This document shows, in pieces, positions 28,552 to 37,813 of a stretch of DNA of 64,000 bases. Where the stretch lies: assembly GCA_963826535.1 (NCBI GenBank), contig CAWGXL010000010.1:362814-426813 (forward strand), in the 5' to 3' direction. The notes below the pieces were generated by a model that was given only the letters and a program-made list of their open reading frames with translations, did no database searches and had not been told where the DNA came from. Position numbers and translations under genes: made by a program. Every line of letters begins with the position of its first letter. The first letter of the stretch is position 1. The stretch is from an uncultured bacterium (GTDB taxonomy: Bacteria; Patescibacteriota; Microgenomatia; Levybacterales; UBA12049).

Positions 28552-29721
28552 ATGAGTCTGCATGAGACAACAGAGTTGGTTAAGAAAACAGGAATAGGCA
28601 GCGCAATAGGAATCGCAGGTATTGTTTTCATTGTCATTTTAATTCGCGTTGGAATAATGGTAAAAAATTATTATTTTCCACCAAAAGTAGATCCTCCTAC
28701 ACAAGTCTATGGTCTGCTTCCTTCATTACAATTTCCGCAAAACGTAGTGGATTCCAATTTTACCTATACCCTTCAGACGACAACAGGAGAATTGCCTACC
28801 GATTTGCCTGACCGATTAAGCATTTTCCCGGTAATTCATAACGCACCAAATTTCCTTAATTTGGATAAAGTAAAAGCAAAAGTAAATGCACTTGATTTTA
28901 CCTCACCGGATGGACAAACTGCCGTGCCGGAAATTCAACTAACTAATCCTTATTATGAATGGGATGAGTTAAAAGGTTATAATAGGAAGATAATTTTCAA
29001 TATTAATTCATATGATTTTAAAATGACAAGCGATTATTTGTCATCTTTAAAAGTAATTTCAGCCAATTATATATCTAATGAGTTAAGCGCTATAGAAACA
29101 GCTCAGGAATTTTTAGCCACGGCTGGATTAACGCCAAAAGATATTGATCTAAAAAAAACAAATTCTATAAATAATTCTGCTAGTTTTGTGACTTTCCCAC
29201 AATTATTTTCAGTACAATCCGGAATACAAGGCAATACTCTTGTAAAAACTACCAGCCTATCAAAAGCACATGTTATCCGTGTCGATTTTTACCAAAAGGA
29301 TGTAGAGTATGAAATGAACACAGGAGAAGCAGCAGAATTTAAGCCAAAAATTAATCTAAAGTTACCCATCCTCTATCCCAACCCCCCTAACTCTACCATG
29401 AATCTTTGGGTAGCTTCCGGTCCTTCAAAAGCAATCGTAACACAAGCATTCTTTACTCATCAAAGTGTTAAGCTTGATGACGTTACCGCTACTTATCGAA
29501 TAAAAACCCCAAGCGTTGCTTTTTCTGAAGTTAAAGACGGATCATCTTACATAGCGGCTTATTCCGGAACCGATAATAATATACTTATTAAAAACGTATT
29601 TTTAGCATATTATCTTGGCGAAGATCCTCAGGACTATTTAATGCCGGTTTATGTTTTTGAGGGAAATAATGGATTTTTTGCATATGTATCCGCAGTAGCA
29701 GATAACCAAATTCAGAAATAA
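28552..29721 (+). CDS. Membrane-anchored extracytoplasmic protein, unknown function
   Basis: Single N-terminal TM, about 350-aa extracellular region; TTGCAT-17-TATACT promoter immediately upstream of the ATG at 28552 (possibly leaderless). Confidence 0.4.
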   Translation: MSLHETTELVKKTGIGSAIGIAGIVFIVILIRVGIMVKNYYFPPKVDPPTQVYGLLPSLQFPQNVVDSNFTYTLQTTTGELPTDLPDRLSIFPVIHNAPNFLNLDKVKAKVNALDFTSPDGQTAVPEIQLTNPYYEWDELKGYNRKIIFNINSYDFKMTSDYLSSLKVISANYISNELSAIETAQEFLATAGLTPKDIDLKKTNSINNSASFVTFPQLFSVQSGIQGNTLVKTTSLSKAHVIRVDFYQKDVEYEMNTGEAAEFKPKINLKLPILYPNPPNSTMNLWVASGPSKAIVTQAFFTHQSVKLDDVTATYRIKTPSVAFSEVKDGSSYIAAYSGTDNNILIKNVFLAYYLGEDPQDYLMPVYVFEGNNGFFAYVSAVADNQIQK

Positions 29722-30809
29722 TTGCTAATATTTGTCCTCGTTTTAACTGGATACTGCGGTGTTATATAGCGAATATTTTTTGATATTAACGTTAGAAGTG
29801 CTCTTGTATCTGTAAATCTTTGCTTGCTTTTCATAACTACCACAATAAAAGTATGCCCATTCTCCACTTTTGATGTTACGAGTACCTGTCCTGCCCCTTC
29901 TGTAGTACCTGTTTTAATTCCATTCACACCATCTATACCAAGAAGTTTGTTAAGATTAGTAAGTTGAATTTGCCTTTTCCCGGTTACGTCGTATATATCC
30001 TTTTGTTTGGTTGCAGTTATATCCGCTAGTAATTTATTTTTAACGATTAACGAAGCCAGACGTGACATGTCAGAAACTGTTGAATAGTTACTGTCATCAT
30101 CTAATCCGGCGGGATCTTTAAAATATGTATTGCTTAGATTTAGCTCCCGGGCTTTTTCATTCATTTTCGTTACAAATGCTTCAGATCCTCCCGGATAATT
30201 TTGGGAGATTGCATAAGCAGCTTCATTGGATGATGGAAGAAACATCGCGAAAAGCAAGTCCTTGAAATAATATTTTTCACCTTGCTGAAAACCTAAATTT
30301 GAACCTTCAATTTTTGGCGTGTAGATTGTCAAAACTGAATTTTCCTGAAAATAATCAAGCGCGACGACTGCGGTCATAATTTTGGCTGTAGATGCCATAG
30401 AAAATCGAAGATTTGGATTTTTTGCATGGAGAACTATTTGCGAATCGGCATCGGTAATAATAGCAGCTGATGCGGAAATATCCGGAATAGTGTAGCTATT
30501 CATTAAAGGATATGTGGAAAGTTTAACTCTGTAATCTAATCTATAAAGCTCGTGCTCTTTTATAGTATTTTCATATTGCTGATTAAGATTATGAACTGTT
30601 AAAAAAATGACAAATATAACAATAACTATAAGTCCTAATTGGAGATCAAACTCATATTTTTTAAGGAAAATAAATGGCTGCATAGTGTTCCAAAGTGAAA
30701 CATTGTTATTCTTCTCAGCCTTTTTATGTTCGCGTTGTACTTTATTATATAAGTTTTTGAATTTCTTTGGTTTTAGCATCTTGGTGGATCGAAAATCTTT
30801 CATCAACAC
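29712..30809 (-). CDS. D-alanyl-D-alanine carboxypeptidase (PBP5/6-like, peptidase S11)
   Basis: SxxK (STAK), SxN (SSN), KTG (KTGTT) motifs; N-terminal TM. True start probably internal (30779 or 30683) because of overlap with the downstream ligase gene. Confidence 0.75.
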   Translation of the reverse strand: MLMKDFRSTKMLKPKKFKNLYNKVQREHKKAEKNNNVSLWNTMQPFIFLKKYEFDLQLGLIVIVIFVIFLTVHNLNQQYENTIKEHELYRLDYRVKLSTYPLMNSYTIPDISASAAIITDADSQIVLHAKNPNLRFSMASTAKIMTAVVALDYFQENSVLTIYTPKIEGSNLGFQQGEKYYFKDLLFAMFLPSSNEAAYAISQNYPGGSEAFVTKMNEKARELNLSNTYFKDPAGLDDDSNYSTVSDMSRLASLIVKNKLLADITATKQKDIYDVTGKRQIQLTNLNKLLGIDGVNGIKTGTTEGAGQVLVTSKVENGHTFIVVVMKSKQRFTDTRALLTLISKNIRYITPQYPVKTRTNISNYF

Positions 30810-32169
30810 GCTCCATATCTCTCGGAAAAAGAGACGCTTCCCTTACATTGGAAAGTCCCATTACTTTCATAGTTATCCTTTCCAGCCCAAAGGAAAATCC
30901 CCCTTCCGGTGGCATGCCATAACGGAATGCCTGCAAATAAATTTCAAACTGTTTAGGATCCATCCCTCGATCTTTGATAGCGTCAATTAATTTTTTATAA
31001 TCATCAATACGCTGACTACCACTCATTATCTCTACACCTCTGAATAACAAATCATAACTCAAGCTAAATTCAGGATTTTTTGGATCCGGCATTGTATAAA
31101 ATGAGCGTTTTAAAGTAGGGAAGTGTGTAATTGTAACAAAATCACTTTTATGTTTCTTTTTTGCCCACATACAAATATCAACTTCGTCTTGCGGGGCCAG
31201 ATCTTTTTCACGACGCACATCCCGGCCAAATTCTTTAAAAATAATTTCCTGAGCTTCGCGTAAAGTTAACCGGGGAATCTTGCCAAATAGTATTGGTTCA
31301 ATATCGTATTTTATTTGAAAATCCATCGATACTTTTTCTGTATACTTTAGTGTCTCTACTGCAACCTCCTCAAATAAATCTAGTAAATCTGTAAAAGTAA
31401 CAAATGCGAATTCGCAATCCATTTGAGTTGTCTCGGTTAAATGACGGGTGGTAACTGAGGGCTCAGCCCGGTAGGCATGAGCTATAGTAAAGACACGTTC
31501 AAATACGGCAACCATAATTTGCTTGTAAAGCTGCGGGCTTTGTGTAAGAAATGCTTTATGTTCAAAATAATCAATCATAAATACTTCTGCTCCCCCCTCA
31601 GTGGCACTTGCAGCAATAGTTGGCACTACAATTTCTATACATTCCAGCTTCTGACTGATCCGTCTAAAACCTTCCAGAATTGCGCTTTGAATTTTGAATA
31701 TAGACTGAATCCGTGCGTGGCGAAGTGTAAGGGATCGATTATCAAGAAGAGTAGGTAATTCAAGATTAAGAATATCCTGTCCCATATCAAACGGTAGGGT
31801 AGCTGCTTGAGCAAAAATTTCAGCCTCAGTAGCCTCCAATTCAACCGTACCGCTTATAATTTTTGGATTAATCAGCCTATCAGGCCTATTATTTACTTTA
31901 CCGCTTATAGAAACAACATCCTCAGGATGAAATTCACTGGCAAGCTTGTGAGCCTCTACAGATACCTTCGGATTGAAAACCACTTGCAACAACCCCGTAC
32001 GGTCACGAATGTCTATAAAAATGAGCTTACCATGATCCCGTCGTGCCTGAACCCAGCCCTGAACCAAGACCTCGTTATTTATTTCTTTCACCGTATCCCT
32101 CACTAATATTCTTGCTTTTTGTTTAACCATAAATAAATTACCCGCCTTCAGTATATCCTTCCCGCCCAC
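30745..32169 (-). CDS. asnS/aspS: Class IIb aminoacyl-tRNA ligase, aspartate/asparagine type (AspRS type 2 or AsnRS)
   Basis: N-terminal OB anticodon-binding domain (VLVQGWV...RDHGKLIFIDIRD); class II motifs YRAE and GGFSFGLERI. Confidence 0.8.
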   Translation of the reverse strand: MGGKDILKAGNLFMVKQKARILVRDTVKEINNEVLVQGWVQARRDHGKLIFIDIRDRTGLLQVVFNPKVSVEAHKLASEFHPEDVVSISGKVNNRPDRLINPKIISGTVELEATEAEIFAQAATLPFDMGQDILNLELPTLLDNRSLTLRHARIQSIFKIQSAILEGFRRISQKLECIEIVVPTIAASATEGGAEVFMIDYFEHKAFLTQSPQLYKQIMVAVFERVFTIAHAYRAEPSVTTRHLTETTQMDCEFAFVTFTDLLDLFEEVAVETLKYTEKVSMDFQIKYDIEPILFGKIPRLTLREAQEIIFKEFGRDVRREKDLAPQDEVDICMWAKKKHKSDFVTITHFPTLKRSFYTMPDPKNPEFSLSYDLLFRGVEIMSGSQRIDDYKKLIDAIKDRGMDPKQFEIYLQAFRYGMPPEGGFSFGLERITMKVMGLSNVREASLFPRDMERVDERFSIHQDAKTKEIQKLI

Positions 32170-32175
32170 ATCCTT

Positions 32176-32262
32176 GTCATTCCCGCGCCTGCCCGCCTAT
32201 GGAGGGAAGGCGGGAATCCAGAACTTTATTTGTATAGATTCCCATTTTCATAGGAATGACAT
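32176..32262. repeat. GC-rich palindromic repeat (MITE/REP-like), copy 1: GTCATTCCCGCG...GGCGGGAATCCAGAA ... TAGATTCCC...GGGAATGACA
   Basis: Terminal inverted repeat TGTCATTCCC/GGGAATGACA; internal CCCGCC/GGCGGG hairpin; second copy at 37701..37813. Confidence 0.6.
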
Positions 32263-32293
32263 CGAGAATTTATTGTACAACTAAATTAGCCTC

Positions 32294-32323
32294 TTGACAA
32301 GAAGCTTAACAATTTATATAATT
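32294..32323 (+). promoter_or_regulatory. Consensus-like sigma70 promoter (TTGACA-18-TATAAT)
   Basis: cTTGACAagaagcttaacaatttaTATAATtt; near-identical to 34169..34197. Confidence 0.7.
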
Positions 32324-32383
32324 TAACCTATAAATACTATAAGACTCTTAGCTCAACAGCAAATATTTGTTACTATTAACTTT

Positions 32384-32467
32384 CTCCTCCGCACAGTTGT
32401 GTAGGAGTTTGATAGAGAATATTAAACAAAATTCACTATCAATCTCCTCAAAAGAGGAGATTTTTTT
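32384..32467 (+). promoter_or_regulatory. Structured 5' leader with mutually exclusive hairpins: P1 (CTCCTCCGCAC...GTGTAGGAG), antiterminator (GGAGTTTGATAG with CTATCAATCTCC), intrinsic terminator (ATCTCCTCAAAAGAGGAGAT + T7)
   Basis: Pairings read directly; second copy with compensatory changes at 34256..34340. Confidence 0.6.
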
Positions 32468-32490
32468 AAATTGTTCGAAAGGAATAAATA

Positions 32491-34080
32491 ATGAATTCAG
32501 AAAGAGATATTGTACATCAGAAAGATATTAAGCCTAATTCTACACCCCCCACCAGGGATAGAACAAATGTTGGGGAAAGAGTATTGACTGTGGTGCCAAC
32601 CCCTGACAAATTTCAACCTGATACTTCTCAAGATCAAGACATTTCTCATGTTCGACTCTCTATGTATAAGCCAGGCGCACTTGAAAAAGGTGAACTCGAC
32701 AAACTAACAAAACAATTCTTCGGAAATAGGGCAAAATGGCTTAAAGTATACACAAATGATGACGAGCGTTTTGCGAAACGCGAAGCTAAAAGAAAAGAAA
32801 AATATCTTAACTCTAACCCGGAAGTTAACAGTGATACTTACGATCGCAATCGTCACGTAAACTTACGCGAGCGCAGAAAATCAGCTAGAAGAGGAATAAA
32901 TAATCATTTTTATAATGCCGTAGAAGAACGATTTGAAGTAATAGATGAAAGCCCTAGGAAATTTGCTGACAGACAGTATAAGCAAGCTACAGATGCCATA
33001 AGATCTGTTGCTGACACTCTTTACCCGGAAAGTGGAATAATAGGCTTAAGAAATGAGACAGGTTTAATTCCTATTAGTCCGGCGATGGTTATTGAAGAAA
33101 TCTCATCAAATAAAACATCCTCTATCTTAAGGCGCGAAGAAATATTACGTCAGCTAAATGCATATACTTCAGCAGAATTGGATAAAAGAAATGGTAAACT
33201 AGAAGCTGAGAGGAAACTCGCTCAAATTCAACATCTACTTAACCGGAAACTATTCGAAGAGCCTATCGGTGCAACAGAAAATGTGGAAGTAGATGCACTT
33301 TATGATAATAAAACAAATGCTGTTGAATTCATAGATGGAATTGATGGTCGTGTATATAAAGATTATGTCCCTGAAGGAAAACATGTAAAAACTCGCGAAT
33401 TGACCATGCGGAAACTAAGAGACACTGATATTCGTATTTATACTAATCCTGATGTTAAGAAACAAGACAGTTCAATTGTCAAAGCCATAAGAAAAACTCA
33501 AGAAGCTGTAAAAGAGGGAAAAGGAGACGAAATTAGAGTTGAAGATTATGTTCAAGACACCCATAGAGTACTGTTTGCTGTAGATGGAGGGCCAGAAGAA
33601 TTAGATGAAGTAGTTGAAAAGATTAAGAATCTTTTGGTGGATCCTGATAATCAACAATATTTAGCCAAACTTGATAATGCAGATGAACCGATGAGAGGGG
33701 AAGATGGGGAATTAATTGGAAGAGTTGTTTCAGTTAAAGATGATTCTAAAACTAACGGCTATGAGACTCAATCAAAAAATGTAAAATGGACAAGATTGCA
33801 GGTTAAGTTCGACGATCTTATTGTACCAATTGAAATAAAATTTCAGGACATGAGACATTTCCTTCTTGATGAATTCGAAGTTGGCGAGTATGAACCGCAA
33901 AATGGTATTTATTCAGGAGCAGCTCATGATCTATATAGATATAATAGGGCTAAAAGCGTAATCCCATATTTTATCCCGGTTGAGGAACTTGACAAAAAAA
34001 TTGACCTGGACACACTTGCATCAAAAACACAAGAAAATATCGTTTTCAAATTACGTAATCAAACAAGAAAGGTAAAATAA
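32491..34080 (+). CDS. Hypothetical 529-aa cytosolic protein with nucleotidyltransferase-fold motifs (Pol-beta-type hG[KS]...DxD; RelA/SpoT-like GY..S...IEIKFQDM...AHDLYRY)
   Basis: EGKHVKTRELTMRKLRDTDIRIY fits G[KS]-x(9-13)-DhDh. GYETQS + 24 aa + IEIKFQDMRHF...AAHDLYRY parallels the RSH synthetase GYRSLH/EIQIRT..M..WA..EH..YK spacing. Highly charged N-terminal 290 aa with no match. Confidence 0.35.
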   Translation: MNSERDIVHQKDIKPNSTPPTRDRTNVGERVLTVVPTPDKFQPDTSQDQDISHVRLSMYKPGALEKGELDKLTKQFFGNRAKWLKVYTNDDERFAKREAKRKEKYLNSNPEVNSDTYDRNRHVNLRERRKSARRGINNHFYNAVEERFEVIDESPRKFADRQYKQATDAIRSVADTLYPESGIIGLRNETGLIPISPAMVIEEISSNKTSSILRREEILRQLNAYTSAELDKRNGKLEAERKLAQIQHLLNRKLFEEPIGATENVEVDALYDNKTNAVEFIDGIDGRVYKDYVPEGKHVKTRELTMRKLRDTDIRIYTNPDVKKQDSSIVKAIRKTQEAVKEGKGDEIRVEDYVQDTHRVLFAVDGGPEELDEVVEKIKNLLVDPDNQQYLAKLDNADEPMRGEDGELIGRVVSVKDDSKTNGYETQSKNVKWTRLQVKFDDLIVPIEIKFQDMRHFLLDEFEVGEYEPQNGIYSGAAHDLYRYNRAKSVIPYFIPVEELDKKIDLDTLASKTQENIVFKLRNQTRKVK

Positions 34081-34168
34081 AGTCAATGCTAATTTTGTCT
34101 GCTATTTCGTTGCCCTCGCAGAAAAATAAGAGCATAACATTTTCCAAACCTTTATACTTAACAGCATC

Positions 34169-34197
34169 TTGACAAGAAGTTTAACAATTTATATAAT
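34169..34197 (+). promoter_or_regulatory. Second copy of the TTGACA-17/18-TATAAT promoter
   Basis: cTTGACAagaagtttaacaatttaTATAATtt. Confidence 0.7.
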
Positions 34198-34255
34198 TTT
34201 AATTAAGAGGACTATGAAACCAACACAGCAACACCATATTGTTACGTTTAAGCAT

Positions 34256-34340
34256 CTCCTCCGCACTTGTGCGGTAGGAGGTTGATAGTGGAATAGCAAA
34301 CAAAAAAACTATCAATCTCCTCATAAGAGGAGATTTTTTT
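34256..34340 (+). promoter_or_regulatory. Second copy of the structured leader (P1 CTCCTCCGCAC-TTGT-GTGCGGTAGGAGG; antiterminator GGAGGTTGATAG with CTATCAATCTCC; terminator ATCTCCTCATAAGAGGAGAT + T7)
   Basis: Covariation relative to copy 1 preserves pairing (CACAGTTGTGTAG versus CACTTGTGCGGTAG). Confidence 0.6.
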
Positions 34341-34368
34341 ATGATTTTATCAAAGGAGGTGGAAAAAT

Positions 34369-34569
34369 ATGATTAGACATGAAGCATCTAAATACAGAAC
34401 AGATTCTCTGGGGCATAATTGGAGAGCATTACAAAGAGTAGGAATGTTCAATGAGACAAACGGTACAGCAAATTCAGGACCGGAAATACGAGTAATTGGC
34501 GGTAAAGATTACACAGTGAGTGCTGGAGTGATATCTCGCGCTAATGGCGATTACGGACAAAGGAGATGA
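34369..34569 (+). CDS. Hypothetical 66-aa Gly-rich protein sharing the leader and promoter of the 529-aa gene
   Basis: Strong SD AAGGAGGTG 7 nt before the ATG; no recognisable domain. Confidence 0.45.
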   Translation: MIRHEASKYRTDSLGHNWRALQRVGMFNETNGTANSGPEIRVIGGKDYTVSAGVISRANGDYGQRR

Positions 34570-34570
34570 A

Positions 34571-36241
34571 CTAATTTATCAATCTGAAATCTTTAATCTT
34601 TAATTGAAGCTTAGTATTCCCATTCCAAGTGTTCTCGTCAATCGAATAAGCTATATCGATTTTATCATCTATGTTTATTTCTCTCGCCATTTCACCCATA
34701 CCAAATGCTATAGCTTCGAATGTGGTATCAGCTTGATTTAGACTTAGTCGTAAATGTTTCCCCTCTCTGCCAAGTACTTTGAGGTTTTCAACATTTACAT
34801 TATAAGATACAAAAACCGGCTGTGGATTAGCCATGCCAAAAGGAGCAAGTTGTTGTAAAATTTTATAAAACTCATTGTTAATTTTTGATAGCGACATTAC
34901 GCAATCAATTTTCAGGGACTTAGTTAGTATTTCACCATTTAATATTTTACCGGCTGAAATTTCAAGAGACTCTTTAAAAAAGATAATTTTTTCAGTTTCA
35001 ATAGTAAATCCAGCAGCCATTGGATGACCTCCGACATTAACGAAATATTCAGGCGTAGAACGCAAAAATTCTATTATATTAAATCCATCAACAGACCGCG
35101 CCGACGCTTTACTATATTTTTCTCCCATTGAGATTACAATTGACGGACGATAATATTCATCAACTAGCTTTCCGGCAACCAGACCAATTACCCCTTGTTG
35201 ATAACTTTCATGAGCAACAATAAGAATTTTCTTAAGTGAATCTTCCATTTTAACAGCCAGACTTGCGTGTTCTGTCGCTTGCCTCATAAGAAGCTGCCTT
35301 TCGCGGTTGGTGAGTTCAAGTTTTTCAGCCAATAACTTTGCTTTACTTTTGTCTTTTGTACATATTAAACGTAAACTATCCATCGCACTTTCTATACGAC
35401 CTGCCGCATTAAGTCGTGGTGCTATAATAAAACCAACTTCATAAACTCCGAGATTTTGTTTTTCACATCCTGCTATTTTAAGAAGTTCAATTAATCCCGG
35501 ACGTCGTGTACGGTTTAATTTATCCAGCCCAAATTTTACTACAGCTCGATTGGCGCCGGTTAAAGGCACTAAGTCCGCAATTGTACCCAAAGTTGCCAAT
35601 TCAAGATGCTCATCATGTTCAAGATCATATACTCCGCTCATTTTCTTAAATTGCTGTACAATCAACCAGGCTATTCCGGCTCCACACATTCCGGTAGTAT
35701 GGACAATTGCAAAAGCATCAGGCAGTTTCGTGCCTTTTGTATGGTGATCTGTAATAATTACATCAATACCTTGTTCACGCGCAAACTTAACTGCCTCATT
35801 GGCAACAATCCCATTATCCACAGTAATAATAAGTTTCACACCGGGATTTTGGGAGAGAATATTTTCAATCCCTTTAATAGACAACCCATAACCCTCATCT
35901 ATTCTATTAGGTATAAACGGCAATACTTTAGTATTCAGATTATGCAGAGTTTCCCATAAAATTGCCGTACCTGTGATTCCGTCAACATCGTAGTCACCGT
36001 AAATAATTATTTGTTCATTTATTTCAATTGCCTGATTAACTCTATTCATTGCTTTTTTCAGCTGCTTTTTATCAATGCCAACACTTTCTATAGTGATATT
36101 CGAAAGTTTTGGGTAAAGGAATTCCTGAATTTCTTTTCTCTCAGTTAGGCCACGATTTTTTAGAAGAATCTTAATTATTTTCTCATTTTTTAAATTTGAA
36201 TCTGCATCTTTAAATTTATTTAAAATTATCCATCTCTTCAT
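34571..36241 (-). CDS. recJ: Single-stranded-DNA-specific exonuclease RecJ
   Basis: DHH family motifs (DYDVDGITG, ITDHH), DHHA1 C-domain, 556 aa. Confidence 0.85.
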   Translation of the reverse strand: MKRWIILNKFKDADSNLKNEKIIKILLKNRGLTERKEIQEFLYPKLSNITIESVGIDKKQLKKAMNRVNQAIEINEQIIIYGDYDVDGITGTAILWETLHNLNTKVLPFIPNRIDEGYGLSIKGIENILSQNPGVKLIITVDNGIVANEAVKFAREQGIDVIITDHHTKGTKLPDAFAIVHTTGMCGAGIAWLIVQQFKKMSGVYDLEHDEHLELATLGTIADLVPLTGANRAVVKFGLDKLNRTRRPGLIELLKIAGCEKQNLGVYEVGFIIAPRLNAAGRIESAMDSLRLICTKDKSKAKLLAEKLELTNRERQLLMRQATEHASLAVKMEDSLKKILIVAHESYQQGVIGLVAGKLVDEYYRPSIVISMGEKYSKASARSVDGFNIIEFLRSTPEYFVNVGGHPMAAGFTIETEKIIFFKESLEISAGKILNGEILTKSLKIDCVMSLSKINNEFYKILQQLAPFGMANPQPVFVSYNVNVENLKVLGREGKHLRLSLNQADTTFEAIAFGMGEMAREINIDDKIDIAYSIDENTWNGNTKLQLKIKDFRLIN

Positions 36242-36269: not shown

Positions 36270-37670
36270 ATGATAGATAAAATTCCAGCTCATGTTTTGG
36301 AAGTAAATAAGAAACTTAAAAAATCTGGCTATGAAGCTTATTTTGTAGGTGGTTGTGTACGGGATTTATTATCCGGCCGGGAAGTCAAGGACTGGGACTT
36401 TACAACAAATGCCATTCCTGAAGATTTACTTAAAATATTCCCAAATGCATTTTATGATAATTCTTTTGGTACGGTGGGAGTTCCCGTAGAGGATATTCAG
36501 GAAATAGAGCATAAAGGAATTATTGAAATTACAACATTTAGAACTGAAACTGCATATATAAACCGGCGGCATCCAACATCAGTGAAATGGGGAAAAACCA
36601 TAGAAGAGGACTTAAGTCGTCGTGACTTTACTGTTAATGCCATGGCGCTAAAAATCCCCCTAACCCCCTTTACTAAAGAGGGTCTCCCGCAGGAGGGAGG
36701 ATTTGACATTATCGACCCCTTCGGCGGACAGGAAGATATTAAAAAGAAAACAATTCGCGCTGTTGGAGATCCGAATCTGCGTTTTAAGGAGGACGCGCTC
36801 CGCTTGATGCGTGCCATCAGATTCGCTACACAGCTATCTTTTGTTATTGACGAAACAACATTAAAAGCTATTATAAATGATGCCCCCCTTCTAGCTGAAA
36901 TCTCTAAAGAAAGGATTCGGGATGAGTTTATAAAGATTTTGGCAAGCATTTATCCTTATGAGGGAGTAATGTTATTAAAAAATACCAATCTCCTTCAATA
37001 TATTCTTCCGGAACTTCTCGAAGGTATCGGCTTTTCACAAGAGCGCCCAGGTAGGCATCATAAAACTGATGTTTTTACTCATAATGTATTTGCATTAAAA
37101 TTTTGTCCATCAATAGATCCTCTAGTACGTTTTGCGACATTAATTCATGATATAGCAAAACCGAGAGTGGCTGACCGAGACAAAGACGGATATGTGATTT
37201 TTTATAATCATGATACAGTAGGTGCAAAAATGGCTCGTGAAATTGCTGATAGATTACGATTTTCAAAAAAAGAGAAAGAAAAAATTTCTACACTTATACG
37301 TTGGCATATGTTTACAGTAGATGAACACATAACTGATGCCGCTGTACGTAGATTTATCAGGCGGATCGGAGTAGAAAACATATCCGATATGATCGATCTT
37401 CGCATCGGTGACAGGCTAGGCGGCGGGACACAGACTGCTGAAAGTTGGCGTCTAAAATTATTTAAAGAACGACTCGAAAAACAACTCGCCCCAATGCCTT
37501 TTTCAATCAACGACCTGGCAATAGACGGGAATGATATTATGAAAGAGTTAAACATCAAACCGAGCCGCGAAGTAGGGGAGATTTTACAAAAATTATTTGA
37601 GGAAGTTGACGAAGATCTATCAAAAAATACCAAAGAGTACTTACTTCAAAAAATCCATAAACTTAAATAA
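36270..37670 (+). CDS. cca: CCA-adding tRNA nucleotidyltransferase with HD domain
   Basis: AYFVGGCVRDLL...DWDF head motif; HD motif region (HDIAK); 466 aa. Confidence 0.85.
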   Translation: MIDKIPAHVLEVNKKLKKSGYEAYFVGGCVRDLLSGREVKDWDFTTNAIPEDLLKIFPNAFYDNSFGTVGVPVEDIQEIEHKGIIEITTFRTETAYINRRHPTSVKWGKTIEEDLSRRDFTVNAMALKIPLTPFTKEGLPQEGGFDIIDPFGGQEDIKKKTIRAVGDPNLRFKEDALRLMRAIRFATQLSFVIDETTLKAIINDAPLLAEISKERIRDEFIKILASIYPYEGVMLLKNTNLLQYILPELLEGIGFSQERPGRHHKTDVFTHNVFALKFCPSIDPLVRFATLIHDIAKPRVADRDKDGYVIFYNHDTVGAKMAREIADRLRFSKKEKEKISTLIRWHMFTVDEHITDAAVRRFIRRIGVENISDMIDLRIGDRLGGGTQTAESWRLKLFKERLEKQLAPMPFSINDLAIDGNDIMKELNIKPSREVGEILQKLFEEVDEDLSKNTKEYLLQKIHKLK

Positions 37671-37700: not shown

Positions 37701-37813
37701 GTCATCCCCCTGAACAGGGGAATCCAGAAGGTATAAATAATTTTTTCCATTTATTTTTTTATAAGGAATAGATTTTGTAGCTACTAGATTCCCGCGTTCG
37801 CGGGAATGACAAT
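37701..37813. repeat. GC-rich palindromic repeat (MITE/REP-like), copy 2: GTCATCCCCCTGAACAGGGGAATCCAGAAG ... TAGATTCCCGCGTTCGCGGGAATGACAAT
   Basis: Same terminal motifs as 32176..32262; internal perfect hairpins CCCCTG/CAGGGG and ATTCCCGC/GCGGGAAT. Confidence 0.6.

Follow-up and report, generated by a model that had tools for sequence, protein, structure and literature searches.

A duplicated promoter and putative leader-peptide attenuator ahead of an unannotated gene with a RelA/SpoT-like predicted fold in Levybacterales

In the attenuators of amino-acid operons (trpL, pheL, hisL, leuL, and thrL), the leader transcript contains four regions that pair in the mutually exclusive combinations 1:2, 2:3, and 3:4, and the 3:4 hairpin, immediately ahead of the regulated gene, acts as an intrinsic terminator. 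Region 1 is covered by a short leader open reading frame (ORF) whose stop codon adjoins region 2, which places a terminating ribosome over region 2. The stalling leaders of resistance genes (Bacillus subtilis bmrB-bmrCD and vmlR, and the ARE-ABCF and erm/cat leaders) also contain a short ORF, here lacking amino-acid-specific codon runs, and general ribosome stalling shifts a terminator or sequestering fold to a permissive fold. Here we describe leaders that resemble both kinds of system in a 64-kb stretch of a contig from an uncultured Levybacterales bacterium (Patescibacteriota); this whole stretch is called the window below. It contains two copies of a promoter-leader block, copy A in front of an unannotated gene for 529 amino acids (aa), which we call X, and copy B in front of a 66-aa ORF.

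We consider it probable, with moderate confidence, that each block consists of a strong constitutive promoter and, behind it, a ribosome-mediated, i.e., leader-peptide, transcription attenuator with four regions. The geometry is of the trp type, and there is no amino-acid-specific codon run. The feature is real and conserved; we class it as a new family within a well-known kind of regulation and not as a new class of riboswitch.

Two promoter-leader blocks in one window

The blocks are direct repeats of approximately 180 nucleotides (nt) at 32288-32470 and 34163-34343, found both by reading the sequence and with a repeat finder. An earlier sequence-only reading of the window, made by a model, had described two almost identical blocks of about 200 nt. 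The duplication holds and the near-identity does not: pairwise alignment gives 82% column identity overall (74-82% for single blocks). Near-perfect identity is confined to the promoter (32 nt) and to the 3' arm of hairpin P2 together with the terminator (34 nt), and the stretch between them has diverged, with indels. As patterns, the promoter stretch (CTTGACAAGAAGyTTAACAATTTATATAATTT) and the P2 arm/terminator stretch (ACTATCAATCTCCTCAwAAGAGGAGATTTTTTTA) each have two matches, against a chance expectation of 0, and no third copy of the block was found in the window.

Both promoters lie on the + strand and match the sigma-70 consensus at 12 of 12 positions. In promoter A, the -35 box TTGACA (32294-32299) and the -10 box TATAAT (32317-32322) are separated by 17 nt; promoter B has the same boxes at 34169-34174 and 34192-34197 and the same spacer. 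The earlier description of consensus promoters was therefore right except for its spacer of 17 or 18 nt, which is 17 nt in both copies. No other 12/12 site of the form TTGACA-17-TATAAT occurred in a scan of 26-42 kb. The distance from promoter to terminator is approximately 145 nt in each block.

Compared with shuffled controls, both leaders have more stable folds (z-scores of -3.1 to -4.1), and each forms three successive hairpins: P1, P2, and the terminator. The P1 hairpin (TCTCCTCCGCAC…GTAGGAG), the antiterminator pairing of GGAGkTTGATAG with CTATCAATCTCC, and the intrinsic terminator (AATCTCCTCAwAAGAGGAGATT, then T7, ending at 32467 and 34340) had all been proposed from the sequence and are present in both copies, as is the general layout, in which a promoter and a structured leader that can fold into either a terminator or an antiterminator stand ahead of two genes. 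With 9 pairs followed by T7, the two block hairpins are the best terminator-like sites in 26-42 kb.

All four regions can be placed on the + strand of each copy. In copy A, region 1 (TCTCCTCCGCAC, 32383..32394) is the 5' arm of P1, the anti-antiterminator; the 1:2 hairpin has an energy of -10.2 kcal/mol and also appears in the centroid fold. Region 2 (TAGGAGTTTGATAG, 32402..32415) is the partner of either region 1 or region 3, and the 2:3 helix has -16.5 kcal/mol. Region 3 (CTATCAATCTCCTC, 32436..32449) can be either the antiterminator's 3' arm or the terminator's 5' arm, and region 4 (GAGGAGATT plus the U-tract, 32454..32467) forms the terminator with 32441-32449 (3:4 hairpin, -12.1 kcal/mol). 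In copy B, region 1 is again TCTCCTCCGCAC (34255..34266), with a 1:2 hairpin of -17.2 kcal/mol, and region 2 is TAGGAGGTTGATAG (34275..34288), with a 2:3 helix of -19.3 kcal/mol. Region 3 is the same string as in copy A (CTATCAATCTCCTC, 34309..34322), and region 4 (GAGGAGATT plus the U-tract, 34327..34340) forms the terminator.

Differences between copies A and B had been read as compensatory and hence as evidence of selection on RNA structure. Those within-genome changes are not real: when RNAalifold is run on the two copies, no pair differs at both positions. The difference in P1 is a 2-nt indel that makes the stem longer in copy B, and in the upstream 'palindrome' the pairing bases are identical in both copies. 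The string quoted for that palindrome, CAACACCATATTGTTG, does not occur in the sequence, which reads …TTGTTA.

Homologous leaders, alternative helices, and covariation

The sequence-only reading had suggested looking for homologous leaders with covariation elsewhere, and these were found in relatives. Contigs were looked up for nine X homologues (for one, P0004, gene order only and no DNA). Leaders homologous to those of the window, which we call type II, occur in five independent relatives (L022, L023, L024, L035, and L020/L021), in front of X or its operon. In each, a promoter close to the consensus and a short ORF accompany the core …GG(A/G)G-N-UU…AAUC(U/C)CC-loop-GG(A/G)GAUU followed by U6-8. 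The window has exactly two matches to AATCYCC-N(1-25)-GGRGATTTTT (0.01 expected by chance); L020, L021, L022, L023, L024, and L035 have one match each, directly upstream of X or the operon, and the other 33 of 39 loci have none. Because the motif is limited to the window and the type II loci, the element is tied to X. No relative has more than one copy, each copy is co-oriented with X or the operon without a second promoter between terminator and gene, and we therefore regard the element as a cis-acting leader.

Some of these loci have further features upstream or downstream of the leader. In L022 (2785-2820) and L023 (1356-1392), a second promoter-like site (TTGACAAGAGG…) lies approximately 80 nt before the attenuator promoter; its -35 region resembles the CTTGACAAGAAG of the window, and the double sites may be tandem promoters. 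In L020/L021, a 101-aa ORF lies between the leader and X. Its first codons (ATGGAATTTGAA, MEFE…) match those at the start of the downstream X gene (L020, 1981-2286 and 2339-2360), which suggests that the 5' end of X was partly duplicated.

Seven leaders were compared: winA and winB (copies A and B of the window), L020, L022, L023, L024, and L035. The three mutually exclusive helices are possible in all of them, with energies of -6.7 to -17.2 kcal/mol for 1:2 (weak in L023, at -6.7), -13.7 to -19.3 kcal/mol for 2:3, and -9.6 to -13.0 kcal/mol for 3:4. The terminator hairpin with U6-8 is present in all five leaders from relatives. The cores of regions 2, 3, and 4 are near-invariant, while the X proteins have diverged to approximately 30% identity. 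Across lineages, P1 is a plain hairpin of 5-12 pairs formed by unrelated sequences, and sequence 5' of region 2 is not alignable between lineages. Conservation is restricted to regions 2, 3, and 4, so an aptamer-like core is lacking upstream of region 2.

Because the MAFFT alignment put region 3 out of place in L023 and L024, covariation was assessed on an N-padded manual alignment of regions 2-4. In the 2:3 helix, 82.7% of cells are paired, compared with 39-49% when the partners are slid by 1-3 columns; 8 of its 14 pairs change on both sides, and none of 500 shuffles attains the pairing or the covariation score of the actual sequences. Most of the terminator is invariant; 92% of its cells are paired, and two of its pairs have changes at both positions. 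L023 illustrates the double constraint on region 3: the U of AAUCUCC has become C, and its partners in region 2 and region 4 have both changed from A to G.

At gathering thresholds, an Rfam search of the whole window returned two tRNAs only, and a permissive search of 32100-34700 (E-value up to 10) returned no riboswitch, just sub-threshold noise. That the sequence-only reading could not match the leader to a familiar riboswitch class thus agrees with Rfam. The only weak match to any Rfam model was Phe_leader (RF01859), at 29.1 bits for copy A and 25.3 bits for copy B against a gathering score of 55, and it derives mostly from the terminator. Exact-pattern scans for the leader, which are too strict for diverged relatives, gave one chance palindrome (in a Sphaerochaetaceae contig) among genome contigs and 0 matches among viral contigs. 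Among metagenome contigs, the P1-P2 pattern had 0 matches and the P2-terminator pattern had 16, all of them chance matches with only the specified bases in common. Four known kinds of attenuator were set aside by eye: the leaders lack the specifier and T-box sequence of a T-box attenuator, the (G/U)AG repeat array of a TRAP attenuator, and the binding loop of a PyrR attenuator, and they have only the word TTGTTAC, which does not overlap the terminator, in common with the ribonucleic antiterminator (RAT) of BglG/LicT.

Leader frames and the weighing of explanations

The sequence-only reading held that selection acts on RNA structure and not on a peptide. The leader frames speak against the second half of that statement: in six of the seven leaders, copy B among them, an ATG 10-17 nt after the -10 box of a near-consensus promoter opens a frame of 15-23 codons that crosses region 1. 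The predicted peptides are MKPTQQHHIVTFKHLLRTCAVGG (copy B), MKLITSQLTIRKINLQVFSD (L020), MNSDLTIKITHQCPA (L022), MKFVWSQNYCHMSFIT (L023), MNFFAQNCNTNFRHFRQG (L024), and MNSFNFYHFMQPLFRKE (L035). Measured from the first base of region 2, the stops lie at 0, +8, -1, 0, -2, -2, and -1 (the frame of copy A included), i.e., within 2 nt of the start of region 2 in five of the six ATG leaders and 8 nt inside it in copy B. We compared this arrangement with mononucleotide shuffles, counting ATG-initiated ORFs that were at least 12 codons long and stopped -3 to +9 nt from region 2. Such an ORF arose at a frequency of 0.05-0.17 per leader, which gives P = 1.4e-6 for at least six of seven when the leaders are treated as independent, an assumption that is only approximately true.

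In copy B, the leader ORF occupies 34214..34285 (+ strand) and ends with a TGA stop within region 2. Copy A has a remnant of the same frame at 32339..32404 (+ strand; ATA AGA CTC … CTC CTC CGC ACA GTT GTG TAG). Because the indels between the copies inside the leader frame are of 6 and 3 nt, the frame is kept between them, and so is the stop, a TAG at 32402-32404 that is the first triplet of region 2.

We infer that the leader ORF is translated and that its translation is coupled to transcription. Transcription would start a few nucleotides before the leader ORF, which would cross region 1 and end at or just inside region 2. Region 2 (GGAG-N-UU plus an extension) could pair with region 1, giving the anti-antiterminator, or with region 3 (the extension plus AAUCUCC), giving the antiterminator, and region 3 could instead pair with region 4 (GGAGAUU plus the U-tract), giving the intrinsic terminator. 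A ribosome finishing the leader ORF would cover region 2, the 3:4 hairpin would form, and transcription would end at 32467 or 34340. A ribosome stalled earlier would cover region 1 and not region 2, the 2:3 helix would form, and the polymerase would read through into the gene; in several lineages, the same effect is predicted when there is no ribosome at all. Since the leader peptides are not enriched in any amino acid, the signal would probably be a general slowdown of translation, not the shortage of a single amino acid. X, a predicted RelA/SpoT-like nucleotide pyrophosphokinase, would then be switched on when translation falters.

A masking simulation agrees with this scheme. The transcript was cut after region 3 (i.e., region 4 had not yet been made), and the ribosome footprint was masked. 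With the ribosome on the last 2-5 codons or the stop, region 3 was free in all seven leaders, so the terminator was permitted; with the ribosome further upstream, the 2:3 helix stayed formed. In L024 and L035, the 2:3 helix formed only when region 1 was masked, as in trp, and in the other five leaders it formed without a ribosome as well.

Several observations weigh against a ribosome-mediated attenuator. Copy A has ATA (32339-32341) where copy B has ATG (34214-34216), and there is no ATG, GTG, or TTG elsewhere in its leader frame, making it the sole failure among the seven leaders; with ATA in place of ATG, copy A would be unable to work by leader translation unless a non-canonical start is used. 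The predicted 5' untranslated regions (UTRs) of the leader ORFs are only approximately 3-10 nt long, and a Shine-Dalgarno sequence is absent except in copy B, where its spacing is 2-3 nt. The six peptides contain no codon run for one amino acid and have no enriched residue in common (Phe is frequent in just two of them). The full-leader equilibrium fold always contains the terminator in L023, L024, and L035; because full-length equilibrium folds favour the terminator, the decision of the switch must be kinetic. The covariation alignment has seven rows and was fitted to the structure by hand, and the sample is small, i.e., seven leaders from six loci, with winA and winB paralogous. Finally, the attenuator is absent in the closest relatives of the window's X and in some distant ones (L001, L019, L025, and L036).

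Leaders of this last kind, which we call type I, are short and have no terminator; they occur in L001, L019, L025-L034, and L036-L039. In them, ACTATAAGAT (ACTATAGGTT in L036) sits 4-8 nt after the -10 box, at about the expected transcription start. This conserved motif is found at 2535-2544 in L001, 2165-2174 in L019, 2395-2404 in L025, and 2479-2488 in L036. It may be left over from the start of a leader ORF, or else act independently as a start-site or operator element. In copy A of the window, 32336-32345 reads ACTATAAGAC; the corresponding string of copy B, ACTATGAAAC, contains the leader ATG. Because copy A has ACTATAAGA in common with the type I leaders of relatives, including the closest (L001 and L019), the sequences suggest a path of decay in which the leader start codon is lost first and the attenuator is deleted later. 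Copy A, ahead of X, may be such a decaying attenuator and largely read through, since it has no canonical start and a weaker 1:2 hairpin. Copy B is intact.

The missing start codon of copy A is also an argument for a factor-dependent attenuator that works without translation, in which an RNA-binding protein (possibly X or the 66-aa product) or another trans-acting factor would bind region 1, region 2, or GGAG/AAUCUCC, and the short ORF would be incidental: copy A has lost its start codon, yet its promoter and all four regions are intact. The very short 5' UTRs and the lack of Shine-Dalgarno sequences fit such a factor too, and the near-invariance of regions 2-4 beside X proteins at approximately 30% identity could reflect sequence-specific recognition. 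However, the triple pairing constraint (regions 1 and 3 with region 2, and regions 2 and 4 with region 3) alone explains slow drift, no conserved candidate for an RNA-binding protein lies beside the element (the 66-aa ORF is species-specific), and an ATG ORF ending at region 2 in six of seven leaders (P ~1e-6) would be left unexplained. We therefore judge such a factor to be unlikely, although it deserves consideration.

Explanations that leave the leader ORF aside in other ways fare worse. A metabolite riboswitch, in which a small molecule (e.g., an alarmone made by X) would bind an aptamer consisting of P1 and the upstream leader, would account for the covarying terminator/antiterminator expression platform and for the better-than-shuffled folding of both copies, and feedback by the enzyme's own product would be physiologically sensible. 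The would-be aptamer 5' of region 2, however, differs between lineages in sequence, length, and shape and is traversed by a conserved coding frame, the conserved nucleotides all lie within the switching helices, and no Rfam riboswitch is at or near threshold, so we consider a riboswitch, which the sequence-only reading had suggested, very improbable. Slighter still is the chance that the blocks are two small-RNA genes whose 120-145-nt products end at the terminator and act in trans, with the position before X and the 66-aa ORF being secondary. A perfect promoter and a strong terminator approximately 145 nt apart, present in two copies in one genome, would suit small RNAs, but in every relative the element is single, co-oriented, and directly upstream of X or its operon without an intervening promoter, and a plain small-RNA terminator needs no conserved, covarying 2:3 pairing that disrupts it.

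Gene X, its surroundings, and comparison with known systems

Gene X (32491..34080, + strand) belongs to an unannotated family. A word-indexed protein search found one homologue (P0001, 51% identity), and an exhaustive HMMER search found 190 cluster representatives. Neither X nor the 66-aa ORF has a match in Pfam, NCBIfam, or PADLOC; Pfam RelA_SpoT (PF04607) matches neither X nor 101 other family members (102 in all), and a profile search of Protein Data Bank (PDB) sequences found no RelA/SpoT homologue (RSH). An AlphaFold2 model built from a 46-sequence alignment is confident, with a predicted local distance difference test score (pLDDT) of 89.9 and a predicted template modelling score (pTM) of 0.85. 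The top Foldseek matches of the model in the PDB are SAS1/RelQ, RelP, SpoT, RelSeq, and FaRel2 (best E-value 2.8e-3, probability 0.99), with probabilities of 0.97-0.99 for 5ded and 6fgx against the C-terminal half. By fold comparison, X has the predicted fold of a synthetase domain: the modelled C-terminal half resembles a Pol-beta-type nucleotidyltransferase, with RSH synthetase domains nearest to it.

RSH synthetases carry the motifs RxKxxxSxxxK, DxxG/R, ExQxRT, and GxAAHxxYK. Residues K323, K331, D356, E448, G476, and H479 are invariant or near-invariant in the X family, and by eye the strings K323-x3-S327-x3-K331, D356, E448-I-x-x-Q, and G476-A-A-H479-x-x-Y-R resemble these motifs. We therefore call X RSH-like by fold and treat its membership of the superfamily as a candidate assignment. 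X also has a long, family-specific helical N-terminal domain (residues ~50-255). Residues 1-48 (32491-32640) are predicted to be disordered (pLDDT <50), and they lack conservation in P0001. The gene-position index has no record of the exact 529-aa product, so public annotation may use another start codon for X.

Around X, the gene order is an S11 D-Ala-D-Ala carboxypeptidase (29712-30809, - strand), aspS (30745-32169, - strand), X, recJ (34571-36241, - strand), and the CCA-adding enzyme (36270-37670, + strand). This order is kept at least partly in seven of the nine homologue contigs; the genes flanking X in L023 have no Pfam annotation, and L020/L021 have another arrangement. The mechanically called aspS ORF starts at a GTG (32169), and the conserved protein start is probably an ATG near 32130 (MVKQKARIL…), so the spacer between aspS and X is approximately 360 nt, not 320 nt. 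Within this otherwise AT-rich spacer, between aspS and promoter A, lies a GC-rich palindromic element (GTCATTCCCGCG…CGGGAATCC, with extra TTCCCGCC repeats, 32140-32222). A second inverted pair is found at 37785-37810, in the spacer between the CCA-adding enzyme gene and an ABC transporter gene, and TTCCCGCS occurs 8 times in the window against 1.8 expected. From their sequence, the two elements look like a dispersed intergenic repeat of the repetitive extragenic palindrome (REP) kind.

The 66-aa ORF behind copy B (34369..34569, + strand) has a strong ribosome-binding site (AAAGGAGG, 34352-34359) and, compared directly with X, is unrelated to it. Its database matches are to itself alone, on a 494-kb NCBI/ENA contig and two Logan contigs, and it is absent at this position in L001, L019, L022, L024, L025, L035, and L036. 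Because it is found only in this species, its status as a real gene is uncertain. Copy B, likewise only in this species, would drive a species-specific putative ORF. Accessory small ORFs beside X vary among lineages in the same way; the P0004 locus, for example, has an additional 204-aa ORF after X.

Directly after each terminator is a mini-ORF that begins behind the Shine-Dalgarno-like 3' arm GAGGAG. The one after terminator A (32471-32491, TTG TTC GAA AGG AAT AAA TAA) overlaps the ATG of X as TAATG, and the one after terminator B (34341-34376, ATG ATT TTA TCA AAG GAG GTG GAA AAA TAT GAT TAG) overlaps the start of the 66-aa ORF by 8 nt. These mini-ORFs could provide translational coupling, or they could be chance occurrences in AT-rich sequence.

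If leader-peptide attenuation is confirmed, the leaders constitute a regulatory RNA family without an Rfam entry, and attenuation of the classical, ribosome-coupled type is at work in a lineage that is little known and has a small genome. The interest of the case lies in that lineage and in the unannotated RSH-like gene under control: the leader is tied to a syntenically fixed family of approximately 190 clusters whose fold points to alarmone or tRNA pyrophosphokinases, providing a concrete, testable link between translation stress and an enzyme like that of the stringent response. A full-text literature search found nothing combining small alarmone synthetases or attenuation with Patescibacteria or the candidate phyla radiation (CPR). 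Going further, the attenuator might be a general sensor of ribosome stalling that turns on an unrecognised family of RelA/SpoT-like pyrophosphokinases, with the second copy in the window recruiting an extra small gene; we put this forward tentatively and think it rather doubtful as a whole. X lacks the ribosome-binding regulatory domains of RelA, and for that reason the 'stringent' signal would be read by transcription attenuation instead of by a ribosome-bound enzyme. A route to the function of X is offered by the leader, the condition that induces it, and the fixed neighbours aspS, recJ, and the CCA-adding enzyme. For genome scans in general, we recommend that a terminator/antiterminator leader with no Rfam match be checked for a leader ORF before it is labelled a riboswitch.

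Among described proteins, those structurally most similar to the modelled C-terminal half of X are the small alarmone synthetases and their toxic relatives (toxSAS), i.e., RelQ/SAS1, RelP/SAS2, FaRel2, and CapRel. The likeness is one of predicted fold: the X family lacks a Pfam RelA_SpoT match and has its own helical N-terminal domain.

Among described leaders, those of resistance genes resemble ours in having a short ORF without amino-acid-specific codon runs. They have no known sequence similarity to the window leaders, the product here is not a resistance determinant, and nothing points to an antibiotic as the signal in the window leaders. Moreover, many resistance-gene leaders act on translation and not on transcription termination.

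The amino-acid operon attenuators are closest in architecture, since the four exclusive regions, the terminator just before the regulated gene, and a leader ORF that covers region 1 and stops at region 2 are common to both. The window-type leaders differ from them in having no codon run for a single amino acid, in placing the ORF only 10-17 nt after the -10 box and mostly without a Shine-Dalgarno sequence, and in having as their target an unannotated RSH-like nucleotidyltransferase instead of a biosynthetic operon. They differ also in that their AAUCUCC/GGAGAUU core is kept across hosts whose X proteins have only approximately 30% of residues in common.

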